In this document: positions 109-59,774 of the stretch, piece after piece
How positions within the stretch are numbered: the first letter of the stretch is position 1
Layout: every line of letters begins with the position of its first letter
Origin: a virus
Reading direction: 5' to 3' (one strand)
Length of the DNA: 64,000 nucleotides
IMG/VR virus record: IMGVR_UViG_3300042090_002370
Coordinates: 1-64,000 of that record
Made by a program: the position numbers and the translations under genes
The notes under the pieces: model-generated
Database searches by the model: none
Seen by the model: the letters and a program-made list of their open reading frames with translations, nothing else
What the model was told of the DNA's origin: nothing

Positions 109-266
109 ACTACCACCACTACTGCAACAACTCTCTCCGCTGCCCTGAGTGCGTTCATCGCTTTTGGAAATGGGCAGAGAATTACTCGCGACGGTTCGAG
201 CGGCCTAGGAAAGAACGAAGAGCAAAACGAGAATCGTTTTCCGTCAAGAAAGGAATACTTCGATGA
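105..266 (+). CDS. Small Cys/His-containing hypothetical protein (53 aa)
   Basis: Manual translation MNYHHYCNNSLRCPECVHRFWKW...; GTGA and ATGA overlaps with both neighbours. Confidence 0.55.
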   Translation: MNYHHYCNNSLRCPECVHRFWKWAENYSRRFERPRKERRAKRESFSVKKGILR

Positions 267-1246
267 AGAGCAAGTCTACGTACGTGGTCGGAGTACTGTT
301 TCTATTCACGACAACAGCAGCGCACGCCCAAACTTGGGTGCCGCTACCAGGTACAGTGTGTCGAGACGGGTCGAGTCTTGGGTATACCGTCAACGAAACA
401 GAAGGGTCCACCGACCTGCTCGTGTTCTTGCAGGGCGGCGGTCTCTGTTACGACGAAGTCTCGTGCGCGGCGAATCGCGCCACGGTTCAGCAGCGAGACT
501 TCACGGGAGGGGTCTTCGACCGGGCGGATCCGGCGAATCCGTTCGCGACGTGGACCACGGTCTTCGTGCCTTACTGCTCGGGGGACTTTTGGGTTGGAGA
601 CGCGAGCGACATCACGATCGCGGGCGTGGCTGGCTTACAGCAGTTTCATGGGCGGTCGAACGTTGCCGCGCTCATTGCTTCGCTTACTGCGAGCTTCGCT
701 CCGAAGCACATCGTCGTCGCCGGCTCGTCGGCCGGAGGGTATGGCGCCGCACTGAACTACTCGCGCTTCGCGGCAGCTTTCCCGTCAGCCACCATGCAGG
801 CCATCGACGACTCGGGTCCTTTTGTCGGGGCCCCCGCGCTTGCGCCATGCCTGATTTCAGCATGGTCGCAAGCGTGGGGACTAGGTAGCACTGTCTTCGC
901 GAATGGCGCGACGGATTTCCCATCGGTATTCGCAGAAGAGCGAACATCGGCTCCGAACGTGAGTTTCGGGATCATCGAATCGTGGGACGACTACATCATC
1001 CGTGAGATCCTCGGTCGAGGGCAGAACGGGTGTACGGGGACTGCGCCACTAGACGGTACAACCTTCGACGAAGGGCTTAGCGCGCTCGTTACGCAGTTTT
1101 CTGGAGGCGGGCATTTCTTCCGGTTCTATTACCCAGGCGTACAACATCAAACGCTCTGGTACAGCGCATTCGATACGACCACGCGCCCATGGGGTGACGG
1201 CGGCGTCGAGTTTCTCTCGCAGTGGGTAGGAGCGCTTTCACAATGA
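263..1246 (+). CDS. Secreted pectin acetylesterase/Notum-family alpha/beta hydrolase
   Basis: Signal peptide ending AHA; CRDGS, FLQGGGLC, VPYCSGD, GSSAGG nucleophile elbow, DDSGP. Confidence 0.85.
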   Translation: MKSKSTYVVGVLFLFTTTAAHAQTWVPLPGTVCRDGSSLGYTVNETEGSTDLLVFLQGGGLCYDEVSCAANRATVQQRDFTGGVFDRADPANPFATWTTVFVPYCSGDFWVGDASDITIAGVAGLQQFHGRSNVAALIASLTASFAPKHIVVAGSSAGGYGAALNYSRFAAAFPSATMQAIDDSGPFVGAPALAPCLISAWSQAWGLGSTVFANGATDFPSVFAEERTSAPNVSFGIIESWDDYIIREILGRGQNGCTGTAPLDGTTFDEGLSALVTQFSGGGHFFRFYYPGVQHQTLWYSAFDTTTRPWGDGGVEFLSQWVGALSQ

Positions 1247-1389
1247 AGCAATACAACGACTACGAGACGTCAACACGGGTGTGTAGCTGTGGCGCCCGCT
1301 TCACTTGGTCTGGGCTCGATCCGGCACTCGACGTATGGCTGGCCGAGCATGAAGCGCACGACAACCAATTTTAGAAAGGTTGGTACACC

Positions 1390-2076
<687 letters not shown>

Positions 2077-2078
2077 CC

Positions 2079-2819
2079 ATGACCACGATGAATTTTAGCG
2101 ATCGAATCGACAGACTCCAGACACTGCGCCGCGAGCACCGACTTATCCGAAATAAGTGGGTCGACAAGGACGCCGACGGACAAGAGCTCGCATGCCTCCT
2201 CGCCGCACTCTCCCCGGAGGTTGGGGAGGCAGAGGCTGCCGACGCTTGCCCGGCGGACGTGGTCACGGACTGGTTTGCGCACCTCACACCTTGGATCGAC
2301 GACGCGGGATCGAAAGGGGCCTGGGAGGCGATGGTGTCGCGATACGTGGCGATCGTGTCAGCGTGGCAGACGCTGACACCGGAGCGTGACCGGTGCCTCA
2401 AGTACGCCGTTCGTGCTCTCTGCGTACGTGAGGCGATGCGGCACACGAGTGATGCGTCGGTTCTGGCGGTGTGTCAGCGCGTGGCCCTCTTGTGCGAGGG
2501 GGTGGCGGCCGGCGGGGCTATCGATTCCGAGGCGTTCGTGGAGGCGGAGGAGGCGTCGGCGGCGGCGGAGGCGGCGGCGGCGTCGTCGGCGGCGTCGAGG
2601 GCGGCGACGTCGGCGGCGACGGCGTCGTCGTGGGCGGCGGCGTCGAGGGAGGCGGCGTCGTGGGCGACGTCGTCGGCGGCGGCGTCGGCGTCGTGGGCGA
2701 CGTCGTCGAGGGCGGCCGCGGAGTGGGCGACGGCGGAGGCGGCGGCGGATCGGCTCATCGACGCGATCCTAGGTGCCTGCGAGCGTGAGCTCGGAATCGC
2801 AAAGGAGGGCAGATGTTGA
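2079..2819 (+). CDS. Ala-rich repeat protein, tandem paralog 2
   Basis: Paralog of 1390..2076; GGAGG upstream. Confidence 0.85.
   Translation: MTTMNFSDRIDRLQTLRREHRLIRNKWVDKDADGQELACLLAALSPEVGEAEAADACPADVVTDWFAHLTPWIDDAGSKGAWEAMVSRYVAIVSAWQTLTPERDRCLKYAVRALCVREAMRHTSDASVLAVCQRVALLCEGVAAGGAIDSEAFVEAEEASAAAEAAAASSAASRAATSAATASSWAAASREAASWATSSAAASASWATSSRAAAEWATAEAAADRLIDAILGACERELGIAKEGRC
2538..2747 (+). repeat. GCG-based tract of 70 codons, 69 of them NNG
   Basis: Read directly from the sequence; one GCC exception. Confidence 0.9.
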
Positions 2820-2884
2820 GAAACAAAAGGAGGCGTACGATGCGGCGCAACTAACTGCCTTTCACTTGATGACCGGTGTGTATC

Positions 2885-2933
2885 AAAGGGCCCATGACGC
2901 AAACCACGCGTTCTCTGGGCCCTTTTCTTTAGC
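2885..2933 (+). terminator. Intrinsic terminator
   Basis: AAAGGGCCCA...TGGGCCCTTT stem followed by TCTTTAGC. Confidence 0.7.
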
Positions 2934-2969
2934 CGCGTGATTCGCACGCTGATAGACTCGGAGGACATC

Positions 2970-3599
2970 ATGACGCAACCTCTTCAGCCAGAATGGCGGA
3001 ACTCAGATCCGCTATGCGACCTCGTAAACCGTAAGAGCGCGGACATCGTCATTCTGCGCCCATCCATCAAGATCAAGGGATCGGCCAACAGGAGGAAGGC
3101 CGTAGCACGAGTCGCCAGAGTTCATCGTCGAGTAGCCAACATTCGAAAAGACGCGATCCACAAGATGACGACTGTGATCACCAAGCAAGCGTCCGTCATT
3201 GTGGTTGAAGACCTCAACGTCTCTGGGATGCTGAAGAACCACCGCCTTGCGCGAGCACTGTCCGATGCATCTCTTGCAGAGATTCACCGACAGTTAGCGT
3301 ACAAGTCCAAGTGGAACGGCGTCGAGTTTATCAAGGCGGATCGGTTCTATCCGTCGACCAAGCGATGCTCCGGATGTGGGGCGAAGAAAGAGATACTGTC
3401 GCTCTCAGAGCGAACGTACCGCTGCGAGTGTTGCGGTCTTGTTATTGACCGAGACCTGAATGCGGCGATCAACTTGAAGATGTGGCCGACAGTTGCGTCG
3501 GCGTCAGCCTGTTGTCCTGGAAGCTCTGGCCGGACTCTTCAGAGCCCGACGAAACTTCTGGTTGGGCAGGAACGAGCCGGTGAGGTTCAGGATGTCTGA
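2970..3599 (+). pseudogene. tnpB: 5'-truncated TnpB (IS200/IS605/IS607 OrfB) fused to an unrelated ~35-aa N-terminus
   Basis: VIVVEDLNV (RuvC-II), FYPSTKRCSGCG...CECCG zinc ribbon, DRDLNAAINL (RuvC-III); RuvC-I, WED and REC regions absent. Confidence 0.85.
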
Positions 3600-4999: not shown

Positions 5000-7900
5000 A
5001 TGTCCTTCGTCCCTGCAGCCGCCCCCTACACATCCGCCGAGATACAAGCTGTTGTGATGCAGCTCGTGCAGAGCTCTATCAATTACCCCGTCGACACGCT
5101 GGGGGTGAGAAGAACCGACTTGACCTTCGGAGACTTCCAACAAGCGGCGGCCGGAATCTTCATATTGTTTACGGATGCGCCATTCTATGTGTTGTGGTTG
5201 GGAACACAACGACTGAATGATGCGATTACAGCGGAGGCTAGTATCTGCGCTCAGCTGCTGTCTGCAATACAAGCGCTGGGTACGCCTGTCTCGCCCATCA
5301 CTGATGTAACGCCGCTCTTCAACGCTCAAGCCGCTCTGGCCAATCTCGGTGCGGCCGCAGCTCAGCGCGGAGGTACATTTACGAACATCCAGGCTACGCC
5401 AGGCTTCCAGCAGCTGATGAAGAGCACGCAGGCTTTCTTGAAGGGGCCTGGGCAGAACGTGGTGTCGCAGGGGCAGATCGTGCAGACGCCTCAAGCCGCC
5501 CGACAGTCTATCCCCGGTCTTGTTACGCAGCTTCAACAGGCGCACGCCGCGCTCATTCAGAGCGTGCAGAAGCTGGTGGACGGCATCGAGAACTACAACA
5601 GCGTCAATCTGCCTGCTGTGGTCTCTTCGAGCGTGCTCGCGAATGCCTCGAGTCTTGTGGGCAACGATGCGAACGTGATGAATAGTTTGACGCCGTCCGC
5701 GCGGCTACAGCAGGTGCGCCAGGTTGTACTCAACCTCATCGCGACACAGACCGTGGTGCAGACCTATTGTTCCTTCAGCGGACCAAGCCAGTTCATCCCG
5801 CTTACGGGAGTAGGTATGCCCTACTCCGATGCGCTGCATCTGGCTACGCCGGCGACTGCGGTGGCGACCCTTGGTGGAGGGGCCGCCATCGTGGCGGGGG
5901 TGAGCGATCAGCTCGAGCTCACGATGGACGGCGGAACGCCGTTCACTCTTACTCTTAGCCCCTCATTGGTAGCGACTCTACAAGGGCAGCTCGCTGAGCC
6001 TTTCCTTATTGGAGATGGCGTGAACCCACCAGAGCCGTACGGCCCTCCAACGAACCCGCCTACGCCGACCAACAACATCTTCCAGCTGCATGTTGGTGTT
6101 GTGACTTACACGGCTACGCTTACGACTGGTTTGCAGACGGCAGACCAGGTCGTTGCGGACATCCAGGCCGCGATGCCCTCGAATGTTACTGCGTCGCCCT
6201 ACTACTCCCCGCTCTACTACTCAGGTGGAATCAACATCGCAGCGGGCACGAATACAACCTGGACGCTGCCCGTTTTGGGCATCAGCGACTTCATCGCGCT
6301 CGGCATTACGGCCACGAACTCCACGGTTACCGTGCCGTCAGGCCCCAACGCAGGCACCTTCCCCCTTATCGCCGTAACGAGCAATACCGTTACGGTGACC
6401 GGTACGTTCGTGGCTCAATCGAACGTTCAGGTCGAGATCGGTGCGATCAACCGCAAGGTACAGATCGTCGTTGCAGATACTACGGCCGACATTCTGCTCG
6501 AGACAACGATGACGATACTCGGCACAACTACTACGACCGCGGCTTGTGCTCAGGCTCTTGGCTTCATCCCAGGCATCAGTGCTTCGTGCAAGAGAACAAC
6601 GCCAGACCAAACAGCGGCCTACATCAATACGGTCACTAGCCAAGTAGAAGCAGGTACGCAGAACCAGTATTCGCTCATCGGCGTACCGGCGCATAGCGTT
6701 GTGCTCTCTACAAGCGAGCTCGTCTTTGCTGAGGCGGAGACCATGGGCTCACAGGCTTTCACCGGCACGACACTCACGTATACAGTAGTTAGCCTTACCG
6801 TGGCCGGCTCCGTCAGTACGGGGGACACCATTGCGCTTCGAAGCGGGGACGCAGCTACGAACGGCTACACCATTACGACGGTCAATGGAGAAGCAGCGTT
6901 AGACCACGCACTAGCCGTGGGTGATGTTATCGTGGCTACGGGCTCGTACTCTGGCACCGCGGCAAGCAGTATCGATGCTGAGTACGGGCCCACCATTACC
7001 GCCAACGAGTACGACGTGGTGGACATACCCAGCGGGCAGAATCTGGGGACGTACTTCGTGCAAGGCAATGGTGCTACCGCCATCGACATTATTCTGCAAC
7101 GTCCGCTGCCCTATCCCATGACCGCCGCACAAGGCTCGGTCGATGTAACAGCCAACTACGGGGAGATGTACCTCACGCTCTCAAGCCTCAATACGACAAC
7201 ATTGAGCGCAGTTGAGGTAAAAGGAACTGGTGGCGCGCTATTTTTCGCTTCTGTTCCCTTCACGCAGCTTGGAACCACGCCCTGGTTTCAGCTCCCGAGC
7301 CTGCCACAGCAGCTGCAGCCAGGTGATCTCCTCTACACCTACGCCACGGACTACAACGAGCCTAGCGCTATCTACCTCATCACCGGCGTTGAGACCGGTG
7401 TGGGCACAGGCGTCATTCAGCTGCAGCCAGAGATACCCGATGGAGTGAGCTGGAGCTTCAATGCGCAGCCGCCGCCCTTCGCCCAACTCGCGTATGGGGT
7501 GCAGAACGATTACACCATCGTGCAGATGCAGTGGCAGGCTTGGCTCGAGGCCGCGCCTCAGCAGCCCAACTACTTCACCAACTTCAACGCGGTCTTGAAC
7601 CCCGTGCTGGTGAACACAGCGCCAAGAGCCGTCGACATCGGCAACGCGGTCAACTTCCTCAATGAGCTCTATGGCCTACTTACCACAGCGCAGGCCACGC
7701 TCCTCGAGGAAGACCCGACTGCCACCATCCAAGGCATCAGCGCGACCTTCACTGTTGAGCCCGTGCCCGCCGTCGATACGATGGTCACCACCTATACAGG
7801 TAAGGGCGCTGACCTCGCCGTCGATACTCTCCTGTCGGGCGACTTCGCTTCATTCTTTGGCCTGACGTCGCAGACCTCTAGCTATGCAGGAGCAATGCAG

Positions 7901-8173
7901 GCGGCAATACAAGCGGTCGCAATGAACGACCTGCCTATCAGGAAGATCAACCGCAGCATCGTGCAGACCAGCCAGATCATCGGCACTACGGCTTCGCCTG
8001 ACCTCGAGTACACAGCGAACAGTGTGACCGAGCAGCTCCAAGGCGATCAGCCCAACCCGCCTGCAGCGCTTGGAAGTGGGGTACCAAGTTCATACGGCAC
8101 AACCATTGGCATGCCCGCTACAGCAGGCGCCCAGACTAGTAATCAACCTACGCCAGGGAGCGGAAATACATGA
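5000..8173 (+). CDS. Large putative virion structural protein (1057 aa)
   Basis: Thr/Val/Ala/Gly-rich and Lys-poor, like the baseplate cluster proteins. Confidence 0.65.
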   Translation: MSFVPAAAPYTSAEIQAVVMQLVQSSINYPVDTLGVRRTDLTFGDFQQAAAGIFILFTDAPFYVLWLGTQRLNDAITAEASICAQLLSAIQALGTPVSPITDVTPLFNAQAALANLGAAAAQRGGTFTNIQATPGFQQLMKSTQAFLKGPGQNVVSQGQIVQTPQAARQSIPGLVTQLQQAHAALIQSVQKLVDGIENYNSVNLPAVVSSSVLANASSLVGNDANVMNSLTPSARLQQVRQVVLNLIATQTVVQTYCSFSGPSQFIPLTGVGMPYSDALHLATPATAVATLGGGAAIVAGVSDQLELTMDGGTPFTLTLSPSLVATLQGQLAEPFLIGDGVNPPEPYGPPTNPPTPTNNIFQLHVGVVTYTATLTTGLQTADQVVADIQAAMPSNVTASPYYSPLYYSGGINIAAGTNTTWTLPVLGISDFIALGITATNSTVTVPSGPNAGTFPLIAVTSNTVTVTGTFVAQSNVQVEIGAINRKVQIVVADTTADILLETTMTILGTTTTTAACAQALGFIPGISASCKRTTPDQTAAYINTVTSQVEAGTQNQYSLIGVPAHSVVLSTSELVFAEAETMGSQAFTGTTLTYTVVSLTVAGSVSTGDTIALRSGDAATNGYTITTVNGEAALDHALAVGDVIVATGSYSGTAASSIDAEYGPTITANEYDVVDIPSGQNLGTYFVQGNGATAIDIILQRPLPYPMTAAQGSVDVTANYGEMYLTLSSLNTTTLSAVEVKGTGGALFFASVPFTQLGTTPWFQLPSLPQQLQPGDLLYTYATDYNEPSAIYLITGVETGVGTGVIQLQPEIPDGVSWSFNAQPPPFAQLAYGVQNDYTIVQMQWQAWLEAAPQQPNYFTNFNAVLNPVLVNTAPRAVDIGNAVNFLNELYGLLTTAQATLLEEDPTATIQGISATFTVEPVPAVDTMVTTYTGKGADLAVDTLLSGDFASFFGLTSQTSSYAGAMQAAIQAVAMNDLPIRKINRSIVQTSQIIGTTASPDLEYTANSVTEQLQGDQPNPPAALGSGVPSSYGTTIGMPATAGAQTSNQPTPGSGNT

Positions 8174-8294
8174 AGCGATTATACGTCGCAGGAGGTGCTG
8201 TGTTACAGCTTCTACCAACAGACTTCGTCCTCAATCTACCCATCAACCACGGCATTGCTCTTGGTATTGAGATGGGACACAGGGAGATGGGCTG

Positions 8295-8639
8295 ATGCTC
8301 GACTCTTCTTACTACCAGTGGACGATGGGGGATGCGACGATGTTCGTGCGCAAGCTCTCTGAGATCGTGGTTCCATTCGGTTACGAGGTTGCCATCGCTG
8401 GCTCCGTGCTCAAGACAGGGCGCAGTATGAAGAACCTCGACGTTGTTCTCTTCCCCACCTGCATCGGCAAGGAGGATGAGAAGAGCCTAACAAATGCGCT
8501 GCAGGCATTCGGCATGAGGATGACGCACGGTGCCGAACGTGTGCGCAAAGGCTGGGGTGAGAAGGGCGCGAGGGACACCAAGCATATAGAGGTGTGGGAT
8601 TACAACGGGAAGAGGGTTCACCTCTTCTTCTTGAAGTAG
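8295..8639 (+). CDS. Minimal nucleotidyltransferase-like protein
   Basis: VAIAGSV...KNLDVV resembles the Pol-beta GS...DxD motif with the first Asp replaced by Asn. Confidence 0.5.
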   Translation: MLDSSYYQWTMGDATMFVRKLSEIVVPFGYEVAIAGSVLKTGRSMKNLDVVLFPTCIGKEDEKSLTNALQAFGMRMTHGAERVRKGWGEKGARDTKHIEVWDYNGKRVHLFFLK

Positions 8640-8648
8640 GAGGCAATC

Positions 8649-8888
8649 GTGAGTGAAGATACAAGACGCGCGCTGTCTAAGCCTGGTGCTGCGTCAGCTA
8701 CAGAGGTCGAGTTGGGTAGAACAGAGCGAACACGCGCTGGCTACTGGGTACGGTTAGGGCGTGTGGAGTTCGAGGGTGAGGGCCTACGTGTACGCATCTC
8801 GTTGAACCGCGGCGATACGTTCGTACGGCACCTTGATCTCACACAGGAGCTCGCGCATGGCCTCTGCGGCCTGCTGAAGAAGCTGTAG
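8649..8888 (+). CDS. Hypothetical protein
   Basis: ORF with GGAGG RBS. Confidence 0.55.
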   Translation: MSEDTRRALSKPGAASATEVELGRTERTRAGYWVRLGRVEFEGEGLRVRISLNRGDTFVRHLDLTQELAHGLCGLLKKL

Positions 8889-8968
8889 TGCCGAAGAGAG
8901 CCTGCGGTCATCCATATGGCCTGCGGCGCGTTGACGCCGCCACAAGGTTCTGGTTTGAAGGAGATACA

Positions 8969-9295
8969 ATGAAAGAGTTTAGAACGAAGTTCCTCGTCTC
9001 CAAGAATGCCGCGAAGGCTACGACGACGGCGCCGGTGAATAGCGGCCCGCAACAACCCCAGCTCACGCGCAAGCAACGTCGAGCCAACGCCACATCACAC
9101 CGCCTGCTCACGCAGAAGATCAACAAGGCAACCGAGCTCGGTCGCCCAGTCTCCATTCAGCAGGGCAGGGGCGGTAGGCTCGAAGTCGTAGTGGGTAAGG
9201 CGAAGAAGCCAGACCCTGGCCCTCAGCCTGGTGAGGTCATTACCGAGGTCTCTGGTAACACGCTGCCCGAGCTACCAACACCAGAGGTAGAATGA
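8969..9295 (+). CDS. Hypothetical basic protein
   Basis: AAGGAG RBS before ATG 8969. Confidence 0.6.
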   Translation: MKEFRTKFLVSKNAAKATTTAPVNSGPQQPQLTRKQRRANATSHRLLTQKINKATELGRPVSIQQGRGGRLEVVVGKAKKPDPGPQPGEVITEVSGNTLPELPTPEVE

Positions 9296-9415
9296 GCGCC
9301 GATCTTGTTCGCCGGCTCGACGCTGCTATGAAGAAAGCTGGAATACCCGTGGCGCTTGGTGCGCGTTACGACAGTGCGCTCCAGATCGTCGCCTACGAGT
9401 TGGAGGGTACCGCTA
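9292..9415 (+). pseudogene. 5' fragment of a small gene interrupted by the M14 cassette
   Basis: ATGA-coupled to the upstream gene; joins in frame with 10158..10307 if the insert is removed. Confidence 0.65.
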
Positions 9416-10159
9416 CTAATGGCCGAAGGTCCCGGCCTTTGGCGCACCGACGCTATCCACTCAATCGTCATGTACGACCACCTCTCATTCCAAGAGTTTC
9501 ACGACCGCGTCAACATAGCTGCGAGCAGACACGCTGGCTCCGTGCAGTGGCTTGACAACGGCGGCGCCCAAGTTCGAATCGGAGATCAGCACCTCCCGGC
9601 CATTTGCATCGTAAGCGGGCTTCACGGCGACGAGCGAAGCGGCCCAATCGCGATCCTCCGACTCCTCGAGCGAGCAAATCTACTGCTGCCTGTGGGCTAC
9701 TCGCTACTGGTGTTTCCACTGGTCAACGACGTGGGATGGAACGCGCGGACACGAGAATGGAGCACCCTCGATCTGAATCGCAGCTTCGGTTTACCCCACG
9801 CTCCGAAGTTCCTCCAGCAGATCGCTGACGAGATCGCGCGTAGCCGACCGCCTGGGTTCCTCGATCTGCACGAGGACTCCGATACGGATTTTCCCTACAT
9901 CTTTCGATACCTGAGGGACGATCCTGAATTCGCTCTCGAGCTGCAGGCGGAGTTGAGCGCAAGAGACGAGTGGTGGGACGACAATCCCGGCTGGGCGGGT
10001 GCGAGCGAGTGCCACGCCCGCGCGCATGGGTCGCGTGTCGCCGCTACGCTGGAGGCTCCGCCCGTCTGGGCGCTCGAGCGACGGGTCGAGTGGAATATGA
10101 AAGCTGTCGAGGTCGGAATCGCATGCATGCCGCGCCATCTCGCGCGGGTTGCCCGCTAA
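9416..10159 (+). mobile_element. Transposase-free gene cassette carrying the M14 peptidase
   Basis: Direct repeats CCGCTA (9410-9415, 10153-10158) and CTAA (9416-9419, 10156-10159); hairpins with CTAA loops at both junctions. Confidence 0.6.
9470..10159 (+). CDS. M14 metallocarboxypeptidase / succinylglutamate desuccinylase-like protein (alternative start 9419)
   Basis: GLHGDE zinc motif, DLNRSF, FLDLHED. Confidence 0.85.
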   Translation: MYDHLSFQEFHDRVNIAASRHAGSVQWLDNGGAQVRIGDQHLPAICIVSGLHGDERSGPIAILRLLERANLLLPVGYSLLVFPLVNDVGWNARTREWSTLDLNRSFGLPHAPKFLQQIADEIARSRPPGFLDLHEDSDTDFPYIFRYLRDDPEFALELQAELSARDEWWDDNPGWAGASECHARAHGSRVAATLEAPPVWALERRVEWNMKAVEVGIACMPRHLARVAR

Positions 10160-10307
10160 CGGGCAAGAGCTACAGCTCGGACCTTGGCAGGAGGTGCTGT
10201 GGGATTATGAGGCTGAACATGCGGACTCAAATAACTTTTACGGGCCTAGCATGCTTGGGCTAGAAATCCAGAAGCTCAAGTTCGTGTTCAGACCGGACAG
10301 AGTTTGA
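10158..10307 (+). pseudogene. 3' fragment of the interrupted gene (NGQELQLGPWQEVLWDYE...FVFRPDRV)
   Basis: 49 sense codons without an upstream start; TGATG-coupled to the next ORF at 10307. Confidence 0.65.
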
Positions 10308-10498
10308 TGGAACGGTTCAACGTGTGGGAGAGCTTGGTGTATACAGGGTTCATCGCCTTGCGGTATGCCAGCGTTGAGCTCGCGACGGAGTACTGGCAGA
10401 TCGTTCACACCTTTGAGGCCGAGAACAAGAAGGCGGCCGAAAAGGTCTTCAGGGAGATGGGAGGGGAGCCGTGATTCAGAAGAAGGAGAATGAGGAGA

Positions 10499-10762
10499 AT
10501 GAGCGGCCAACTACGTAGTACACGCGACATCGAGGAAGCGCTACAATTCGTGCTCAGGGAGATGGTTCAGGATCCTGTGGGCATGACGAAGGATGGCGTT
10601 CCGAGGACCATCTACTACGTCGTCATCAAAGATGCCATGAGGGAGCTCCTCGAACGACGGAGCGACGCGCAGCACAAGGCCCAGACAACCTACCCTAAGG
10701 ACGCTCCGACCAACCCCGGTGGCAAGACCATACCTGCTGTGTCGGACAATGAGGAGAAATAG
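10499..10762 (+). CDS. Hypothetical protein
   Basis: GAGGAG RBS. Confidence 0.6.
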   Translation: MSGQLRSTRDIEEALQFVLREMVQDPVGMTKDGVPRTIYYVVIKDAMRELLERRSDAQHKAQTTYPKDAPTNPGGKTIPAVSDNEEK

Positions 10763-10764
10763 CC

Positions 10765-11292
10765 ATGAGCAGTGACAACATGATTGTGATGTACGGCGCG
10801 CCGCCTGATCGCAGGTCCGAGCGGGTCCTCGAGGCAATCAAGAAGCACATGCAGCCACAATCTACTGTTGCGTCAGCACCAGTAACTGGGATGACGCTTA
10901 TCATCCACAATCCCTTTACCGGGGAGCCGATCAACCTTCTCGAGGTCCTAGCGCAGAACGCGAAGCTCACAGATGAGCGGGCGAAGCTAGAACTGGAGAT
11001 GCGTGACCTCAAGTCCGAAAATGAGACTCTGCTTGAGAACCACAGGATTGACCGTAGCTACATCGCCGAGCAGAAGAAGTCGTTGGCAGAAACGAACAGG
11101 CAGCTCGCGGCGGCCGCCAGTATACGAGAGGCAGACTGCACTGACTATATCAATGCCATCAAGATGCATGCGGCACAGGCCGCCGCTGATGGCGCTACCA
11201 TCAGCGCGCTGCAGCAGAGGATCAGTGTGCTCGAGGCGGAACTGAAGTACGCAGTAGGCGCGCTCAGAGGTAAGAAGCGGGAGATTAGGTAG
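10765..11292 (+). CDS. Coiled-coil hypothetical protein
   Basis: Heptad-like composition; RBS present. Confidence 0.65.
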   Translation: MSSDNMIVMYGAPPDRRSERVLEAIKKHMQPQSTVASAPVTGMTLIIHNPFTGEPINLLEVLAQNAKLTDERAKLELEMRDLKSENETLLENHRIDRSYIAEQKKSLAETNRQLAAAASIREADCTDYINAIKMHAAQAAADGATISALQQRISVLEAELKYAVGALRGKKREIR

Positions 11293-11550
11293 ATGCCCTC
11301 CATCGAGCTGCGCCTAGAAGGCGATGGCGCCATCCCCGAGATGGCCGAAGCGATCAAGAAGAAGCGCGTTCACAAGGTAGAGAGCATCGTGCTCTCAGCT
11401 CTTGAGGGCGGCATGCAGAGCGGCAGGCCAAGCGTAGTTATCGCCATTCCGCTCAAAGACGGCTCGTGGGTCTACGCGCAATCGAGCATGCGTCTCTTCC
11501 TGGCTTGTGCAGAGGCGCTTAGGATTAGGTACGGTGACCAAGCAGGCTGA
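11293..11550 (+). CDS. Hypothetical phage protein
   Basis: Abutting ORF; GGMQSGRPSV motif. Confidence 0.65.
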   Translation: MPSIELRLEGDGAIPEMAEAIKKKRVHKVESIVLSALEGGMQSGRPSVVIAIPLKDGSWVYAQSSMRLFLACAEALRIRYGDQAG

Positions 11551-11597
11551 TGCTCTCGTACAGCGTTCTCAATAGTGGGCAGACCGGGAGTGAAGAG

Positions 11598-11936
11598 ATG
11601 AGCGAGATCAAAGATCCCTACAAGAAGCTACGAGAAACGCAGGACCTTGTAGACAAGGCCGAGTCGGACATCTGCGGCCAGCCTCCACCGGATCCCTACC
11701 TCGAACTAGCAGAGCAGTACCCACACTGCGACGCGTACATTCTTCACCCGCGCGGTTCCTGCGAATTCTGTGACCTGCCCACCAGTGAGCCGCTACATGC
11801 GTGGCGTAAGGAGCACGGTATCAATCACACAGGCGAGTACGACCCAACAAAGAAGCCGTGCCCTGCAGAGCTCCGTCGTCCTAAGGGCGTCATCGACAAG
11901 TGGGGCGGCAACGTAGCAATGCCGCCCAAGATCTAG
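11598..11936 (+). CDS. Cys/His-containing hypothetical protein
   Basis: HCD...HP...CEFCD. Confidence 0.6.
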   Translation: MSEIKDPYKKLRETQDLVDKAESDICGQPPPDPYLELAEQYPHCDAYILHPRGSCEFCDLPTSEPLHAWRKEHGINHTGEYDPTKKPCPAELRRPKGVIDKWGGNVAMPPKI

Positions 11937-11947
11937 GAGAAGACGTA

Positions 11948-12202
11948 ATGCACGAACTTTCCTTGAGAGAGCGCAACGTACGTGCTGTGACGCACGATGG
12001 GATATGTGATGTCTGGGCTTGTACTTGCGATAGGCTGTACGAAGGTGAGCCTGGCGGCCCTCCACCTGACCTCGGACGCGAGCACGTTTTCAGCGAGCTG
12101 CGCTTGCACAAGACCTGCGTAACGGACGAGCATACCTGCGATACTCTTGCGGACGAGTGCAAAGCGTGTGAGGCCACCGAACTTTTGAAGAGCTTGCCGT
12201 GA
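11948..12202 (+). CDS. Cys-rich hypothetical protein
   Basis: GGAG RBS; several Cys pairs. Confidence 0.55.
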   Translation: MHELSLRERNVRAVTHDGICDVWACTCDRLYEGEPGGPPPDLGREHVFSELRLHKTCVTDEHTCDTLADECKACEATELLKSLP

Positions 12203-12408
12203 CGCTCTTCATCGGCTTTCTGTACTTCTACGCCGCTGTCTCTGTTGCTACAGCATTGTGGCTAACCGCATTACCACATGCTGTCATCGCCATAGAAGAT
12301 GACGATGTCTATGCTGTCATCGCGATCTCAGTCTTTTGGCTCCCCATAGCCCTGACGCTTTCTCTGCTGTTCCTCGTCCTCTATGTGCACGCTCTGCTGA
12401 AGGACTAG
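12199..12408 (+). CDS. Small membrane protein with two TM helices
   Basis: Two hydrophobic segments. Confidence 0.6.
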   Translation: MTLFIGFLYFYAAVSVATALWLTALPHAVIAIEDDDVYAVIAISVFWLPIALTLSLLFLVLYVHALLKD

Positions 12409-12427
12409 CAAGGAACGCGCAGCGAGC

Positions 12428-12437
12428 GGGATAAGAG
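12428..12437 (+). promoter_or_regulatory. GGGATAAG motif (putative phage promoter, class 1)
   Basis: Repeated intergenic motif upstream of SD-led genes; followed here by the hairpin CTCGAGGGA/TCCCTCGAG. Confidence 0.6.
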
Positions 12438-12468
12438 ACTCGAGGGAAAGAGCTCCCTCGAGGAGGAT

Positions 12469-12744
12469 GTGCACGTGGCAGATGAGAAGAAGGGCTTCTG
12501 GACTCAAGTGCTAGAAGGCGTTGCCGAGGACCTGAGGAGAGGGAGGATCACCGGAGCAGAACAAGCGCAAAGGGAACTGGACAGCTCACGCAAGCGGTCA
12601 GAGTGGGTTGCTGCCCGCATCGCCGTCGCGTTCGAGAACATGGCTGCCCACAGTCCAGGGATTACGCCTGCTACTGGTGCTCAGCTTTGGGATTGGGCCG
12701 AGGCCATCTACGACGAAGGAAAGAAGAGAGGGCATCTACCGTGA
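12469..12744 (+). CDS. Hypothetical protein
   Basis: GAGGAGG RBS. Confidence 0.6.
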   Translation: MHVADEKKGFWTQVLEGVAEDLRRGRITGAEQAQRELDSSRKRSEWVAARIAVAFENMAAHSPGITPATGAQLWDWAEAIYDEGKKRGHLP

Positions 12745-12981
12745 TCACCCGACCACCGAAAGTGACTGGTTGGCTCTGCTTGGCCTGCGGGGCGCAAGTG
12801 AGATGAACTCGAAGCTGCTCGATGAGCTTGCTTGGCTTTTCAAGGTAGAGTCCGTTCGCGAGAACAGTCATGGACGACAGGCTGAATCATTCCGCCTCTT
12901 CCTCATCGCTCGTGACATCGAGGAGCGCGCTCAGAACAAAAGACGCGAGGAATTCGAAGCATCTTACATAGGAGACCTGAC

Positions 12982-13350
12982 ATGATGGATATCGACGACA
13001 TCAATGCGTTGTTGAAGAAGGCGTGCGATCACGCCGAGAAGAAGCTCGGGCTCACGATCAAGCCAGGCAGCTTCGGTGTGGAGAGCAGCCATAGCAAAAT
13101 AGAACCGAGCGGCAGTGGGCGCTGTTGTCCCATCGGAGCTCTCGAGCTCTATTTGAAGCAGAGTCGTAGCGTGTTCGAGTTCAACTACGACTCGTTCGTA
13201 GATGGGTTCGACGCGGACATCGACGAGCTAGTGGCTGTGTCACATTGTACAGGGTGGCAGGTGGGTTTGACCCGCGAGCTCTTTTGGCTCGGGCGTGAGT
13301 TCAGGAAACAGTATGTGAAGGAGGCGCCACACGCCAGCGCGAGTGCATGA
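12982..13350 (+). CDS. Hypothetical protein
   Basis: Coupled ORF with RBS. Confidence 0.6.
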   Translation: MMDIDDINALLKKACDHAEKKLGLTIKPGSFGVESSHSKIEPSGSGRCCPIGALELYLKQSRSVFEFNYDSFVDGFDADIDELVAVSHCTGWQVGLTRELFWLGREFRKQYVKEAPHASASA

Positions 13351-13574
13351 TGGCCGAGTCGCGTTCACGCGAAGAGTACCTACAGCTCGAGGTCAATCGG
13401 CTGAGGAGTGAGCTCGCCGAGGCCAAGAAGGAGATTGCGCACTGGAAGGTAAACCACGACAGCCAGGTACGCTCAAAGCGACGAGGGCACGAGATTCAGG
13501 CGGACATCATTGCCGACCTACGAGATGAGCTCGACGCTCTTCGAGCTCAGCTCACCCCTGAGCGTGAGGGCTAG
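13347..13574 (+). CDS. Small coiled-coil protein
   Basis: ATGA coupling. Confidence 0.6.
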   Translation: MMAESRSREEYLQLEVNRLRSELAEAKKEIAHWKVNHDSQVRSKRRGHEIQADIIADLRDELDALRAQLTPEREG

Positions 13575-13936
13575 TGATGGATGCAGCTGGCGATGCCCGC
13601 GCCTGTGGTGATGATGCCAATGACGGAAAGTACGATGCCGGCCAGCGCACCGCCAGTAGCTGCACCGGCGAAGACTGTGCCAAAGCGCTCCAGGCGCGAT
13701 AGAGGCTCTCGACTCTGCAGCGCCTTCAGGGAACGGTCTGCTGCGTTCACGGCCGCTATCTTGGCGTCGATAGCGGCCGTCTTGGCGTTCTCTGAGGCTA
13801 GCGTGGCGCGGTTGCAGAGCCGTTCGACGATGAGAACGTGTGTGATGATGTAATTGAGCTTCGTATCAATGTTCTCTGGCGTTGGCGGGAGGCTCATAAC
13901 TTCGTCGGCCTCTACGCGCATCTGCCCGCTGTCCAT
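13571..13936 (-). CDS. Coiled-coil protein with C-terminal TM helix (holin- or hemolysin-like candidate)
   Basis: TATGCT 7 nt before ATG 13936; GxxxG-rich TM segment. Confidence 0.55.
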   Translation of the reverse strand: MDSGQMRVEADEVMSLPPTPENIDTKLNYIITHVLIVERLCNRATLASENAKTAAIDAKIAAVNAADRSLKALQSREPLSRLERFGTVFAGAATGGALAGIVLSVIGIITTGAGIASCIHH

Positions 13937-13980
13937 ACCGCCCAGCATACCCGGTGGCCTACAGAAAACGGAAGCACGAG

Positions 13981-13999
13981 GGGATAAGAGAAGTGGAGG
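13981..13999 (+). promoter_or_regulatory. GGGATAAGAGAAGTGGAGG promoter motif plus RBS
   Basis: Close matches at 15768, 16651 and 45593 (-). Confidence 0.7.
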
Positions 14000-14008
14000 A
14001 TATATGGC

Positions 14009-14203
14009 ATGAGCCGTCTCGACGAACTCAAACGGCAGGGTTTCGACCGAAGCTACGCCGTACCGTTCAAGGGCGTGTGGAAGGCGCTCTGCTCTCAGTG
14101 CGAAGCGGTCTGTCTCAATGGCATCCCGTGCCACGAGACTGGCTGCCTGAACGCGGCGAAGGCACGCAGGCAACGACAGCAGGAAGAGAGGGAACTCGAA
14201 TGA
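14009..14203 (+). CDS. Small Cys-rich protein
   Basis: CSQCEA..NG.PCHETGC. Confidence 0.65.
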   Translation: MSRLDELKRQGFDRSYAVPFKGVWKALCSQCEAVCLNGIPCHETGCLNAAKARRQRQQEERELE

Positions 14204-14439
14204 CCAAGCTAGAAGAAGCAGTAGCAAAGTTCAGCATGCTAGATGCTCAGCACTTACATCCGAGATTGAGTGAAATCATCCAGCTGGCTCGGGAAGAAGA
14301 ACAAGCCAAGTTCACCAAGCTCGTAGAGCTCGCGAAGAGCATCGCGCAGGTCTCAATGAAGGAGCCCGAGCACTGCAAGAAGGGGCCGTGTTCTGATTCG
14401 TCAGGGTGCATCTGCGGGTGCAAGGGGTGTCGGCCATGA
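14200..14439 (+). CDS. Hypothetical protein with Cys-rich tail
   Basis: ATGA coupling on both sides. Confidence 0.55.
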   Translation: MTKLEEAVAKFSMLDAQHLHPRLSEIIQLAREEEQAKFTKLVELAKSIAQVSMKEPEHCKKGPCSDSSGCICGCKGCRP

Positions 14440-14684
14440 ACAAAAATAATCCGACGGTTGATGTGGTGCTGGATACTGTCATTGATCTAGCCGCCGACCT
14501 TTTCTACTACGACCGCAAAGAAGATGAGGACCTGCCTCTCGGTGTGATCCAGAAGATGGTGGATGCAGGTGAGATTACTGTCGACGAGATCGTGGCTGCT
14601 TTCGCAGAGGCGGTGAAGGAGCACGTGGGCTCCGGGCAAGTGGGCGAAGAAGACAAGGAGGATGGTGATGGAAACGCAGCTTAG
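14436..14684 (+). CDS. Acidic hypothetical phage protein
   Basis: YYDRKEDEDLP...GEITVDEI. Confidence 0.65.
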   Translation: MNKNNPTVDVVLDTVIDLAADLFYYDRKEDEDLPLGVIQKMVDAGEITVDEIVAAFAEAVKEHVGSGQVGEEDKEDGDGNAA

Positions 14685-15411
14685 GGCAGAGGATCTGGAA
14701 CGACTTGCACCCTGCGCCACGAGGATAGCTTGGGCGTGGCCGATGAAGAACTCGGGGCTCACCGTGTTTTGGAACACGGGGTTCCCTCACCTAGGGAAAA
14801 CACTCCCTCAGCTCAAGGAGGAGCCTGCTACCAGCGTTCTCGCTCCTGACGCAGCCTCGCTCATCCATCCATCGAAGCCTGCCGTTGTAGTCCCGAAGTG
14901 CGAACTCGCTTTACCTAAGTGTGCAGACGCATGGGTTGCGGATTCACTGCTCGTACTGAAGCCGCGTATAGAGAGCAGCGAAGATTGGCGCATCCGGCAG
15001 TTTGAGGATCACGTACTCGGCGTCAACGAGGATAAGTCCGTTGACGCGAATAGAAGAAGGCGCGGTGCAGCACTGGCCTTGAACCCAGCCGTACGCCATG
15101 TCGGCATGGGCATCTGGTCGGCGCCGTCGACAACGTCAGTCAAAGATAAGCGTCTGGACAAGAACAAGAAGCTGACAAGTAGCTACATGGTTGACATGAC
15201 TCTCGGTACTTGTTCCTGCCCTGACTACGACCGTCACAAGAAGAAGTGCAAGCACATCTATGCTGTTGAGCACGTCAAGAATGGGAACATGTATATGGGC
15301 GGAGAGTTTACAGCCGGGGTCTTGATGAAGGCTCTCAACGACACACTGAATATAAGTGTGGCGCCACCACGTGTGCCTGACTTCATCCAGTTCGAATGGC
15401 GTGAGCTATGA
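14662..15411 (+). CDS. SWIM zinc finger protein
   Basis: CSCPD...CKHIYAV. Confidence 0.75.
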   Translation: MVMETQLRAEDLERLAPCATRIAWAWPMKNSGLTVFWNTGFPHLGKTLPQLKEEPATSVLAPDAASLIHPSKPAVVVPKCELALPKCADAWVADSLLVLKPRIESSEDWRIRQFEDHVLGVNEDKSVDANRRRRGAALALNPAVRHVGMGIWSAPSTTSVKDKRLDKNKKLTSSYMVDMTLGTCSCPDYDRHKKKCKHIYAVEHVKNGNMYMGGEFTAGVLMKALNDTLNISVAPPRVPDFIQFEWREL

Positions 15412-15764
15412 GTATCGACATCTACGGTAAGAAGCCAGACAGCACGCCCATCGTACTGCGGTACACACATCCGAGTAGCCTCAACCTGGCGAACGTGAAT
15501 GCATGCGCGTTACTTCGTTTGCTCGGTCTACCATTCGAACAAGGTTATGGAGAGGCGTCGGTTGTAGACGTACGCCGAGCAGTGATAAAAGCCAAGGCCC
15601 TCTTCGAGAAGAAGGCAGATGCTTTTACGCAGGAGCCAGTCGACGAAGGCAACTACCACTTCGGCGGTATACGCAAAGACTACTTGCGCATGCGCCTTGA
15701 CGACCTCTCCAGCACCGTTGAGACACTGGCAGGGATGGGCGCCACAATCGTCTACTGGTGCTAG
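15408..15764 (+). CDS. Hypothetical protein
   Basis: Coupled ORF. Confidence 0.65.
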   Translation: MSIDIYGKKPDSTPIVLRYTHPSSLNLANVNACALLRLLGLPFEQGYGEASVVDVRRAVIKAKALFEKKADAFTQEPVDEGNYHFGGIRKDYLRMRLDDLSSTVETLAGMGATIVYWC

Positions 15765-15767
15765 CGC

Positions 15768-15786
15768 GGGATAAGAAGAATGGAGG
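15768..15786 (+). promoter_or_regulatory. GGGATAAGAAGAATGGAGG promoter motif plus RBS
   Basis: Repeated motif. Confidence 0.7.
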
Positions 15787-16253
15787 ACAGCCATGCCTGA
15801 CAGAATCGACAAGTACAACGCCGAGGTGGATAGGTACAACGCCGAGGTCGACGCCTACAACGCTGAACTAGAGATCGGAGGATCATCATGCAAGAAGACA
15901 AGAAGAAACAAGAGTTCGACCCTGACTTCAGTCCACAAGCCGAAGTCAACAAAGAAGCGGCGAAAGACCACGGGTTGAAGTACGACCGCAGGTCCGGGTT
16001 CTACAAGGACGAGGACGGTTGCCTGCGAAGAGACAAGTTCGGCCAGCCACTGTAGAGAAGCTCAGGGAGCTAGATAAGGCGGCGCCATGACAAACACTGA
16101 ACAGAATAACGTGATTGAGATCGCGAAGGAGCATACTGCCGACGACGACATCGTCGCAGTCGACGACGCGGGAGACGCTGGTGGAGAAGATCATGAAGAC
16201 GGACCTGCTGAAGAAGCCTGCATGGGCGCTTCCGCAGACGCCATGAGGAAGAG

Positions 16254-16550
16254 ATGGGCTGGGCGACAGAGTACGTAGAGCGCCTCGCCAGGGGTGAGAC
16301 GGTGCAGTTCAGGCCGCATGGAAACTCGATGGTTCCGAGAATCCGATCTGGTCAGCTCTGCACCGTCGAGCCTGCGGTCGTGGACCAAGTAGAGAAGGGC
16401 GACATTGTTCTCTGCAAGGTCGGAGGCTCGGTGTACCTGCACCTCGTGAAGGCATGCACTGTCGGTCGGGTGCTGATTGGGAACAACAAGGGGCACGACA
16501 ACGGCTGGACCCATCAGGTGTTCGGCAAGTTGATCAGAGTGGAGGACTGA
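16254..16550 (+). CDS. Peptidase S24/S26-like beta-domain protein
   Basis: GNSM.P.I.SG, GDIVLCKV...YLHLV, IGNN.G..NGW. Confidence 0.65.
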   Translation: MGWATEYVERLARGETVQFRPHGNSMVPRIRSGQLCTVEPAVVDQVEKGDIVLCKVGGSVYLHLVKACTVGRVLIGNNKGHDNGWTHQVFGKLIRVED

Positions 16551-22069: not shown

Positions 22070-22780
22070 GTGACGCGTCTCATTACCGATGTGTCCGCAG
22101 CGAACGCTCTAGGGCGTGCGCCTGGTCGTGCCCTATCACAAGATGATCTCGACTGGGCTTGGGCGAAGAGCCAGGGCGTAGTCGGCAGCTACGTGGAGGG
22201 CTACATCGGTAATGACGGGCCGAACACTGACTTCGACCTGCAGATGCAGGACATCGTAGACGCCGGTCTTCTTGCCGGCGTCTACGACTACGTCTACCCG
22301 CTGCCAACGGTAGCTGGGCACGCGAACCGCGACCCCGTCGCACAAGCGCAGCTTCATGGCGCTAAGTCGGGCCCATGGAAGCCTGGCATGCTTCGCTTCA
22401 TGGGCGATCTCGAGTGGCCTTCGCCAGCCCAGTGGGCGCAGTGGGGGTGCTCGGCACAGCAGATCATAGACTGGATTTGCGCTTACCTCCTTACACGTGA
22501 CGGCCTCGCCGGTTGTATGGTCGGCCTATACACCTACGAAGACTTCTGGATGGAGCTCACCGCCGGTGGCACGAATGTGCCCTCCGAGCTTGCCGACCGC
22601 CCGCTATGGGTGGCCGGCTCATCTGCCTGGGTGAAGCCTCCCTGGTCGGCCGCTACGCTCTGGCAGATGACTGGCCAAGAGCTCAAGGTGCAGACGACTT
22701 CCGGGCGTCCGCCGGTAACCACAGACTGCTCGCAGTTTCTCGGAGACGATGCCGCTTGGTCGGCTTTTATTGGCCAGTAA
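22070..22780 (+). CDS. GH25 muramidase (endolysin)
   Basis: TDVS, G.Y.Y, GDLE (DxE), LWVA, PPW...LWQ; GTG start at 22070. Confidence 0.8.
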   Translation: MTRLITDVSAANALGRAPGRALSQDDLDWAWAKSQGVVGSYVEGYIGNDGPNTDFDLQMQDIVDAGLLAGVYDYVYPLPTVAGHANRDPVAQAQLHGAKSGPWKPGMLRFMGDLEWPSPAQWAQWGCSAQQIIDWICAYLLTRDGLAGCMVGLYTYEDFWMELTAGGTNVPSELADRPLWVAGSSAWVKPPWSAATLWQMTGQELKVQTTSGRPPVTTDCSQFLGDDAAWSAFIGQ

Positions 22781-59248: not shown

Positions 59249-59774
59249 AGAGCTCCTTGAGGTCGTTGGAATGGAGGACAGCGAAGCGGTCTTTCAGCTT
59301 CCCAGTACCCTGGGTGAGGAAGTCTATAAACAGTACGGCTAGCTCTCCGTGGGTTGCTTCGCCGGCGATCTTGTAGAGCTCATCGAGCTTGAGGCTGAAG
59401 GACTCGGCTTGTGTGAACTTGGCCTCGATGCGGAGCTCCCCCTTCTTGCGATTGTCCCCCTTCGTCCCGGCTTGGTTGCCGGAGCCAGGCTGCCGGCGGG
59501 CGCCCCACTCCTCTTGGATGTCGAGCTCCTGGCGTAGGGAGGACCGCTGGTTGGACCTGAGGGCCTTCTTGCGCGGTGCCGGGCCTGGGGCGAGTTCGTG
59601 CATCGGCACGTTGGTCTTCTGGCCGTCGCAGTTCATCAGGCAGGTGGAACACAGCGGCTCGGCGTCACCGTAGTGGCCGTCCACGAGCAGCATGAAGCCG
59701 AGGACCCAGACGCCCTCGGCCTTACACTTCGAGCAGATGCCGATTTTCGCTACGGTGTTCAGCGATACGCGCAC
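59208..59774 (-). CDS. PD-(D/E)xK nuclease (Hjc-like) with N-terminal zinc finger
   Basis: PGSG....KGD....RIEAK. Confidence 0.7.
   Translation of the reverse strand: MRVSLNTVAKIGICSKCKAEGVWVLGFMLLVDGHYGDAEPLCSTCLMNCDGQKTNVPMHELAPGPAPRKKALRSNQRSSLRQELDIQEEWGARRQPGSGNQAGTKGDNRKKGELRIEAKFTQAESFSLKLDELYKIAGEATHGELAVLFIDFLTQGTGKLKDRFAVLHSNDLKELYAASQNRRSERPT

Follow-up and report, generated by a model that had tools for sequence, protein, structure and literature searches.

An M14-like deacylase gene between two coding-like fragments in a variable phage slot looks like a one-off recombination scar

The window analyzed here spans positions 1 to 64,000 of a 163,859-bp virus record (IMG/VR, IMGVR_UViG_3300042090_002370; 88% complete, 58.8% guanine plus cytosine (GC)) from an uncultured phage of about 164 kb. 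Between nucleotides (nt) 9292 and 10307, it contains a predicted zinc deacylase gene of the AstE/AspA (M14-like) type, hereafter the M14 gene, which lies between two short coding-like fragments, the N-fragment on its 5′ side and the C-fragment on its 3′ side (Table 1). A first-pass annotation, made from the letters alone, had described this arrangement as a transposase-free peptidase cassette inserted inside a phage gene. The outer ends of the two fragments are indeed tied into the operon as that annotation had described: the ATG of the N-fragment (9292–9294) overlaps the TGA of the upstream gene g8969 (9293–9295) in an ATGA configuration, and the frame of the C-fragment (frame 0) contains no stop codon between 10101 and the TGA at 10305–10307, which overlaps the ATG of the next gene at 10307 (TGATG). 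The start-less character of the latter frame was likewise confirmed. The only canonical start codon in it is TTG at 10149, which would give an open reading frame (ORF) of 52 amino acids (aa) and is not preceded by a Shine-Dalgarno (SD) motif. Because the window and L005, a 161,908-bp contig from an independent ENA assembly (ERZ27249839), are 100% identical over 6419–13159, the ORF frames are not assembly artefacts.

The coding potential of the region was assessed with a codon log-odds model that was trained on the long ORFs of the phage's own genome, with 1184 true coding windows and a set of open off-frame windows serving as nulls. Frame 1, which contains the N-fragment, scores +0.49 over 9292–9414, a value reached by 6% of the open off-frame windows. 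The frame then runs on to its first stop codon at 9553–9555, giving an ORF of 87 aa that overlaps the M14 gene by 137 nt, or by 86 nt if translation of the M14 gene starts at 9470. The tail of this ORF (9415–9552) scores −0.46, which is below all of the true coding windows, and the M14 frame scores +0.3, with a coding signal from about 9419. At the opposite end, frame 0 scores −0.60 just upstream of the C-fragment and +0.35 from about 10158 onward (14% of the open off-frame windows reach the latter value). Thus, the 5′ piece lacks a stop codon, the 3′ piece lacks a start codon, and the coding signal stops and resumes at the borders of the insert. An external gene caller, applied to L005, called neither fragment ORF and left gaps of 123 nt and 147 nt at their positions in an operon that is otherwise tightly packed. 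The frame switches at both ends of the M14 gene, the ATGA and TGATG couplings, the missing stop and start codons, and the gaps in the gene calls together point to truncated coding sequence on both sides of the M14 gene. If this holds, the locus would be of practical value for annotation, as gene callers miss two coding remnants here.

Table 1. Features of the M14 locus and its surroundings (positions in the window; a dot denotes a feature without strand).
Feature	Position	Strand	Remarks
Upstream gene g8969, 108 aa	8969..9295	+	Also called by the external gene caller on L005; left conserved anchor of the variable slot
N-fragment, 41 codons, coding-like, ATGA-coupled	9292..9414	+	No stop codon where the coding signal ends
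GGAGGG, SD-like motif	9402..9407	+	Within the N-fragment, 11 nt 5′ of the M14 ATG; read from the sequence
Left copy of the CCGCTA direct repeat (microhomology)	9410..9415	+	
Out-of-frame, Arg/Pro-rich read-through tail of the N-fragment ORF	9415..9555	+	The M14 frame is the coding frame here
Intact AstE/AspA-type M14-like zinc deacylase gene (predicted), 246 aa	9419..10159	+	Alternative start ATG 9470
RNA hairpin, 9 pairs, some G-U, not CTAA-loop	9422..9443	+	In minimum-energy and centroid folds
Perfect 7-bp hairpin TTGCCCG-CTAA-CGGGCAA	10149..10166	.	z −2.0, moderately unusual compared with shuffles
C-fragment, 49 coding-like codons, no ATG or SD-led start	10158..10307	+	TGATG-coupled to the next gene
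Gene following the C-fragment, 55 aa, coupled to it by TGATG	10307..10474	+	Slot cargo; no homolog in L071
Small gene, 87 aa, last cargo gene of the variable slot	10499..10762	+	No homolog in L071
g10765, 175 aa, right conserved anchor of the slot	10765..11292	+	N-terminal 75 aa 47% identical to L071 3346-3549

The predicted M14 protein is matched by the Pfam family PF24827 (AstE_AspA_cat) with an E value of 3.8e-9 and 36.8 bits, compared with a cut-off of 25. In addition, the PDB entries 3b2y, 2qvp, and 3ieh match its profile over almost the full length, with E values from 1e-10 to 1e-12 (6.7e-12 for 3b2y). The score is far under every NCBIfam equivalog cut-off. Twelve homologs were found, with identities of 38–59%, and H69, E72, H151, and E212 are invariant in all 13 sequences, that is, the window protein and the 12 homologs. 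The HGDE(R) motif, the His of HED, and the Glu of TxE are also conserved in 13 of 13, with HGDER being invariant across the 12 homologs. Judged by these motifs, the protein is an AstE/AspA (M14-like) zinc hydrolase, with a catalytic domain that carries the predicted HxxE...H zinc ligands and catalytic Glu. The closest homologs begin at the alignment column of the second ATG (9470), and their C-termini coincide with that of the window protein. Since both termini match those of free-standing homologs, the gene is complete and not part of a fusion. A fusion via a frameshift or a sequencing error was rejected, given the identity of the two assemblies and the natural termini. The view that this gene constitutes the insert stands in so far as the gene is intact and its TAA (10157–10159) lies in the right junction; the start is at 9419, one nt from the previously assigned 9420. 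The GC content and codon score of the gene fall within the range of the genome, and a recent foreign origin as judged from composition was therefore rejected. The RNA hairpin at 9422–9443 follows directly after the M14 ATG, and the surrounding region folds no better than shuffled sequences. In a consensus scan of the + strand, neither a sigma-70-like promoter nor an intrinsic terminator was found near 9292–10307, so that the gene does not have the makeup of a moron.

The homologs for which DNA sequence was available are encoded on phage-like contigs (L002, L068) and on bacterial contigs (L003/L004, L070), in unrelated gene contexts. As phage contigs that are unrelated to each other encode an M14-like deacylase, the enzyme may serve an auxiliary function. 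The bacterial version (L003 5001-7286; L004; L070 4001-6322; the contig of P0006) adjoins a convergent gene for a 388-aa protein and an EamA transporter gene, and on one bacterial contig, the M14-like gene comes after a fragmented Transposase_mut gene. Within the phage genome itself, residues 56–164 of the M14 protein align weakly with window 59427-59768 (+) at 31% over 120 aa (E = 0.13 within the genome), which may represent a second, very divergent M14-like domain or noise.

A collinear JGI contig, L071, which was found via the neighboring gene g11550, delimits the part of the operon in which the M14 gene resides. The last 47 aa of g8969 share 57% identity with the first ORF of L071; the homology ends exactly at the last codon of g8969, and the L071 homolog continues for 29 residues. 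From there, the order of homologs on L071 is g8969 (C-terminus), g10765, g11550, g12199, g12608, g12982, g14662, and g15408. Between the g8969 and g10765 homologs, L071 harbors 11 small genes (143-3345, 3.1 kb) that are unrelated to those of the window, where the corresponding 1.5 kb (9292-10765) contain five coding units, namely the N-fragment, the M14 gene, the C-fragment, and two small genes. Because the flanks are kept and the content is swapped, 9292-10765 is a hypervariable slot, with the M14 gene as lineage-specific cargo. Indeed, five relatives with PolA identities of 60–67% lack the M14 gene, both fragments, and all neighboring small genes. A 1057-aa protein of the phage was detected in distant relatives, with 47–56% identity in the three closest and 38–49% in G005, and was not found in G004, a genome that is 65% complete. 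Searches of viral contigs with the 1057-aa protein, g8969, and g15408 yielded no closer relatives, nor did a collection of phage DNA.

Neither fragment had a homolog in the five relatives, in L071, or in the ESM Atlas, and neither had a paralog in the genome of the phage. The complete 87-aa ORF of the N-fragment found no homolog among 5.8 billion proteins, and the C-fragment found none among 1.84 billion representatives, viral contigs, or metagenome contigs; a 17-aa match of the C-fragment in L074 was spurious, as it sits in an off-frame of another gene. A contiguous homolog of the protein of about 90 aa that results from joining the fragments, whose absence the first-pass annotation had named beforehand as refuting its cassette idea, was not found, not even in the syntenic contig L071. 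A predicted complex of the two fragments obtained a score of 0.01, with the folds of the fragments themselves being uncertain, and was not used as evidence either way. The C-fragment also contains one copy of a perfect 15-nt direct repeat, GCAGGAGGTGCTGTG (10187-10201), the other copy of which (8188-8202) lies in a different reading frame in the small ORF after the gene for the 1057-aa protein. About 0.03 repeat pairs of this kind are expected in 8.5 kb and about 12 genome-wide, so that GCAGGAGGTGCTGTG probably reflects chance.

The junctions between the M14 gene and the fragments carry short direct repeats. The right copy of CCGCTA (10153-10158) lies within the perfect hairpin at 10149-10166, which also holds the candidate start codon TTG and, in its CTAA loop, the TAA of the M14 gene. 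As noted in the first pass, removal of about 740 nt joins the frames of the N- and C-fragments, and this holds both for 743 nt between the CCGCTA copies and for 740 nt between the CTAA copies. The predicted sequence of an empty site, with about 9415 joined to about 10159, is GGTACCGCTAACGGGCAAG. Thus, the repeats are present as described, but a repeat of the size of CCGCTA is at chance level: direct repeats of at least 6 nt between the start and stop windows occur at 13% of 211 ORFs of the genome and at 12% of shuffles, and CCGCTA itself has 70 occurrences in the genome.

The significance of hairpins and folds was evaluated against shuffled sequence, and hairpin counts were compared with Markov shuffles. 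Of the two CTAA-loop hairpins that had been proposed, the right one is real and perfect, whereas the left one (GCTA-CTAA-TGGC) does not form in the minimum-energy fold, and its region is unremarkable compared with shuffles (z −0.56). Within the 163.9 kb of the record, no CTAA-loop hairpin other than the right one reaches a stem of 5 bp, so that the genome-wide scan for such palindromes suggested in the first pass brought up no others. One arm of the right hairpin belongs to the flanking C-fragment and not to the insert, which makes it a poor fit to an element-borne recombination site. No further copies of either junction sequence exist in the 163.9 kb, and no repeat family flanks the genes in 8000–16500. 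As a general feature of the record, perfect hairpins with stems of at least 7 bp and loops of 3–8 nt are about 1.6-fold enriched, with 137 instances compared with 72–100 in Markov shuffles. Several perfect hairpins of 9–13 bp lie near gene ends, for example, at 13749–13780 and 22254–22287, and have no common sequence.

The proposal that a site-specific or folded single-stranded DNA (ssDNA) system moves such cassettes in trans found no support. No tyrosine recombinase (PF00589) was matched at E ≤ 1 anywhere in the 163,859-bp record, which is 88% complete, whereas 14 of 14 control genomes matched; serine recombinases (PF00239) and Y1 HUH enzymes (PF01797) were also not detected in the whole record, and control genomes matched both. 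The M14 loci on L002, L068, L003/L004, and L070 have no end sequence, CTAA, or hairpin in common, and each has its own intergenic flanks; across these four other distinct loci, M14 homologs never share the boundaries seen here, which the first-pass annotation had likewise named as a refuting outcome. The idea that excision or splicing acts as a switch of the interrupted gene also found no support: no recombinase was detected, and no Rfam intron or ribozyme was found at E ≤ 1 in 8800-10800. In group I introns, a U precedes the 5′ splice site and a G ends the intron, and group II introns start with GUGYG. No boundary within the repeats yields either the group I nucleotides (U|...G|) or the group II motif. 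Nothing that we found supports an undescribed hairpin-guided cassette system.

Taken together, the locus has the appearance of a scar that a single recombination of an ordinary kind left in a variable slot, and not that of a new mobile-cassette system. The most likely reading, which we hold at about even odds, is that the M14 gene was brought into the slot by one illegitimate recombination that cut into pre-existing small coding sequence and left truncated remnants. We favor a one-off event over a mobile element because no repeated ends, no second CTAA hairpin, and no recombinase were detected in the record and the M14 loci share no ends. The recombination may have been assisted by microhomology. 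The 5′ remnant would now read through into an out-of-frame tail, and the 3′ remnant would have lost its start codon. A simple insertion would mean that the remnants derive from one gene of about 90 aa, whereas a replacement would mean that they stem from two separate genes. The M14 gene would be translated from its own ATG, with the SD motif happening to lie in the 5′ remnant. If the 3′ remnant is translated at all, this would have to occur via termination-reinitiation at TTG 10149, with the hairpin being unfolded by ribosomes that terminate on the M14 TAA in its loop.

Several observations weigh against an insertion into an older coding sequence. The idea, which was already part of the first-pass annotation, fits the coding switches, the missing stop and start codons, and the outer couplings, but the searches turned up neither an uninterrupted homolog nor an empty site or a related allele, and the event is deduced from one sequence. 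The codon usage and GC content of the M14 gene are typical of the genome, and the remnants are still coding-like and free of stop codons, although an old insertion should have allowed dead remnants to decay. The native composition and the undecayed remnants favor either a recent event with a similar donor or fragments that are still functional. In addition, the CCGCTA microhomology is statistically not significant, and the coding scores of the short fragments are only moderately discriminating, as 6% and 14%, respectively, of the open off-frame windows reach them.

The same observations are the strength of the principal alternative, namely that three independent, intact, and translationally coupled genes lie side by side and nothing has been interrupted. 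The small gene at 9292 would then consist of a functional part of 41 aa and a tolerated tail that overlaps the M14 gene, and a gene of 52 aa would start at TTG 10149, masked by the hairpin and unmasked by termination at the M14 TAA, a classical form of translational coupling. The in-frame join and the CCGCTA repeat would be coincidences, and neither is demanding, as the former has a chance of 1 in 3 and the latter is expected at 13% of ORFs. Both small ORFs are coding-like and stop-free, TTG 10149 lies 8 nt before the M14 stop codon and within a stable hairpin, the M14 composition is native-like, and a joined homolog is missing. However, an overlap of 137 nt (86 nt with the start at 9470) is out of keeping with the operon, whose called genes overlap by no more than 4 nt or are separated by gaps; the tail scores under every true coding window; TTG 10149 has no SD motif; and the gene caller called neither ORF. 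We therefore regard three intact genes as a serious but rather unlikely explanation.

Far less probable is the cassette as first proposed, a non-autonomous single-gene unit of 740–743 nt that a site-specific or ssDNA recombinase (integron- or IS200/IS605-like) would mobilize in trans by recognizing CTAA-core hairpins and whose excision would restore the 90-aa gene. CTAA is present both to the left of the unit and at its right end, a placement like that of IS200/IS605 cleavage sites, a perfect hairpin marks the right end, and the boundaries fall exactly at the ATG and the stop codon. These features have to be set against the single copy of the unit, the uniqueness of the CTAA-loop hairpin and of the junction sequences in the record, the unsupported left hairpin, the right hairpin arm that belongs to the flanking gene, the undetected Y1-HUH, tyrosine, and serine recombinases, and the M14 homolog loci without shared ends; moreover, with its 18 nt, the hairpin does not come near the length of an attC site, and it has no GTTRRRY core. 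We give just as little credence to a variant in which a recombinase encoded by the host or a helper recognizes a short CTAA-core hairpin that forms partly with target DNA, with precise excision restoring the 90-aa gene, so that the unit could act as a reversible switch. If true, GC-rich large phages would carry a novel type of cargo element that has no transposase. Still more improbable is a repair at the level of RNA or translation, in which an intron, long-range ribosomal bypassing, or frameshifting fuses the pieces. The in-frame join at repeated codons (GCT A.. / CTAA) bears a superficial likeness to the take-off and landing sites of a bypass, but the M14 ORF fills the whole insert and thus leaves no room for a ribozyme, Rfam introns and ribozymes were not matched, no boundary in the repeats obeys the group I rule or the group II GUGYG start, and the M14 protein begins and ends as free-standing proteins do, and not as part of a fusion. 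Furthermore, known ribosomal bypasses span tens of nucleotides, not 740.

Outside the slot, the gene g11550 (11550-11936; L071 4174-4668; also on L073-L081) encodes a conserved Cys/His-rich C-terminal domain with the signature QYPHCD..GxCE(Y/F)CD..INHTGE..CPAE..WxGN. The domain was observed on at least 10 phage-like contigs, including one of 463 kb, in combination with varying N-termini. It has no match in Pfam, PHROG, or NCBIfam and is probably an undescribed zinc-binding phage domain.

Compared with known systems, the M14 protein shares its Pfam family, profile matches to PDB chains, and catalytic residues with the AstE/AspA enzymes, that is, succinylglutamate desuccinylase, aspartoacylase, and the uncharacterized Shewanella metallopeptidases 3b2y, 2qvp, and 3ieh; it differs from them in being short (about 230–246 aa) and consisting of the catalytic domain alone. 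Of the features that define integron cassettes, IS200/IS605 elements, introns, and morons, the locus shows none of those tested. Integron cassettes carry attC, an imperfect palindrome of about 57–141 nt with an RYYYAAC...GTTRRRY core, at the 3′ end, are arrayed, and are moved by an IntI/Xer-like tyrosine recombinase. The M14 locus resembles them in that a lone gene without a promoter, and with a hairpin at the 3′ end, lies in a large phage. However, it has one 18-nt hairpin, half of which is flanking DNA, with no family of 50–130-nt sites and no array; its GTTGCCC does not fit GTTRRRY, AAC/GTT core pairing is absent, and a tyrosine recombinase was not detected. IS200/IS605 elements and their non-autonomous derivatives (palindrome-associated transposable elements, PATEs) insert 3′ of a fixed tetranucleotide, have subterminal hairpins, and are mobilized by the Y1 HUH enzyme TnpA. 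The CTAA at the left flank and right end, the hairpin near the right end, and the dispensability of a target-site duplication are common to both; in contrast, the window has no detected TnpA, no left-end hairpin, and a single copy, and its right hairpin straddles the junction instead of sitting inside the element.

The nrdA gene of Aeromonas phage Aeh1 is split by the mobE homing endonuclease gene and is an example of "genes in pieces" (PMC3045599). In this case, an unsplit homolog is known, whereas none was found for the fragments in the window, where the pieces are recognized from sequence alone. The gene inserted here encodes a metallo-deacylase and not a homing endonuclease, so that no mechanism of self-mobility is apparent. 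The likeness is that a whole ORF, predicted to be translated separately, divides what is possibly one gene into a 5′ and a 3′ part and that these outer parts stay coupled to the operon. T4-type phages have hyperplastic regions in which accessory genes are inserted, deleted, and replaced (PMC2839356, PMC4122927). The window differs from these in that repeated promoter-terminator (PeSL-like) motifs were not found at its junctions, in that the junctions lie inside coding sequence, and in that the phage has no T4-like assignment. If a single recombination event did bring in the M14 gene, the locus would be a clean example of the entry of an accessory enzyme into the variable slots of large phages, by an event that cuts small ORFs and borrows their translation signals, which is not new in concept. 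As in the hyperplastic regions, the slot lies between conserved anchors, its small-gene content is fully different between relatives, and its cargo consists of orphan ORFs and one enzyme gene.

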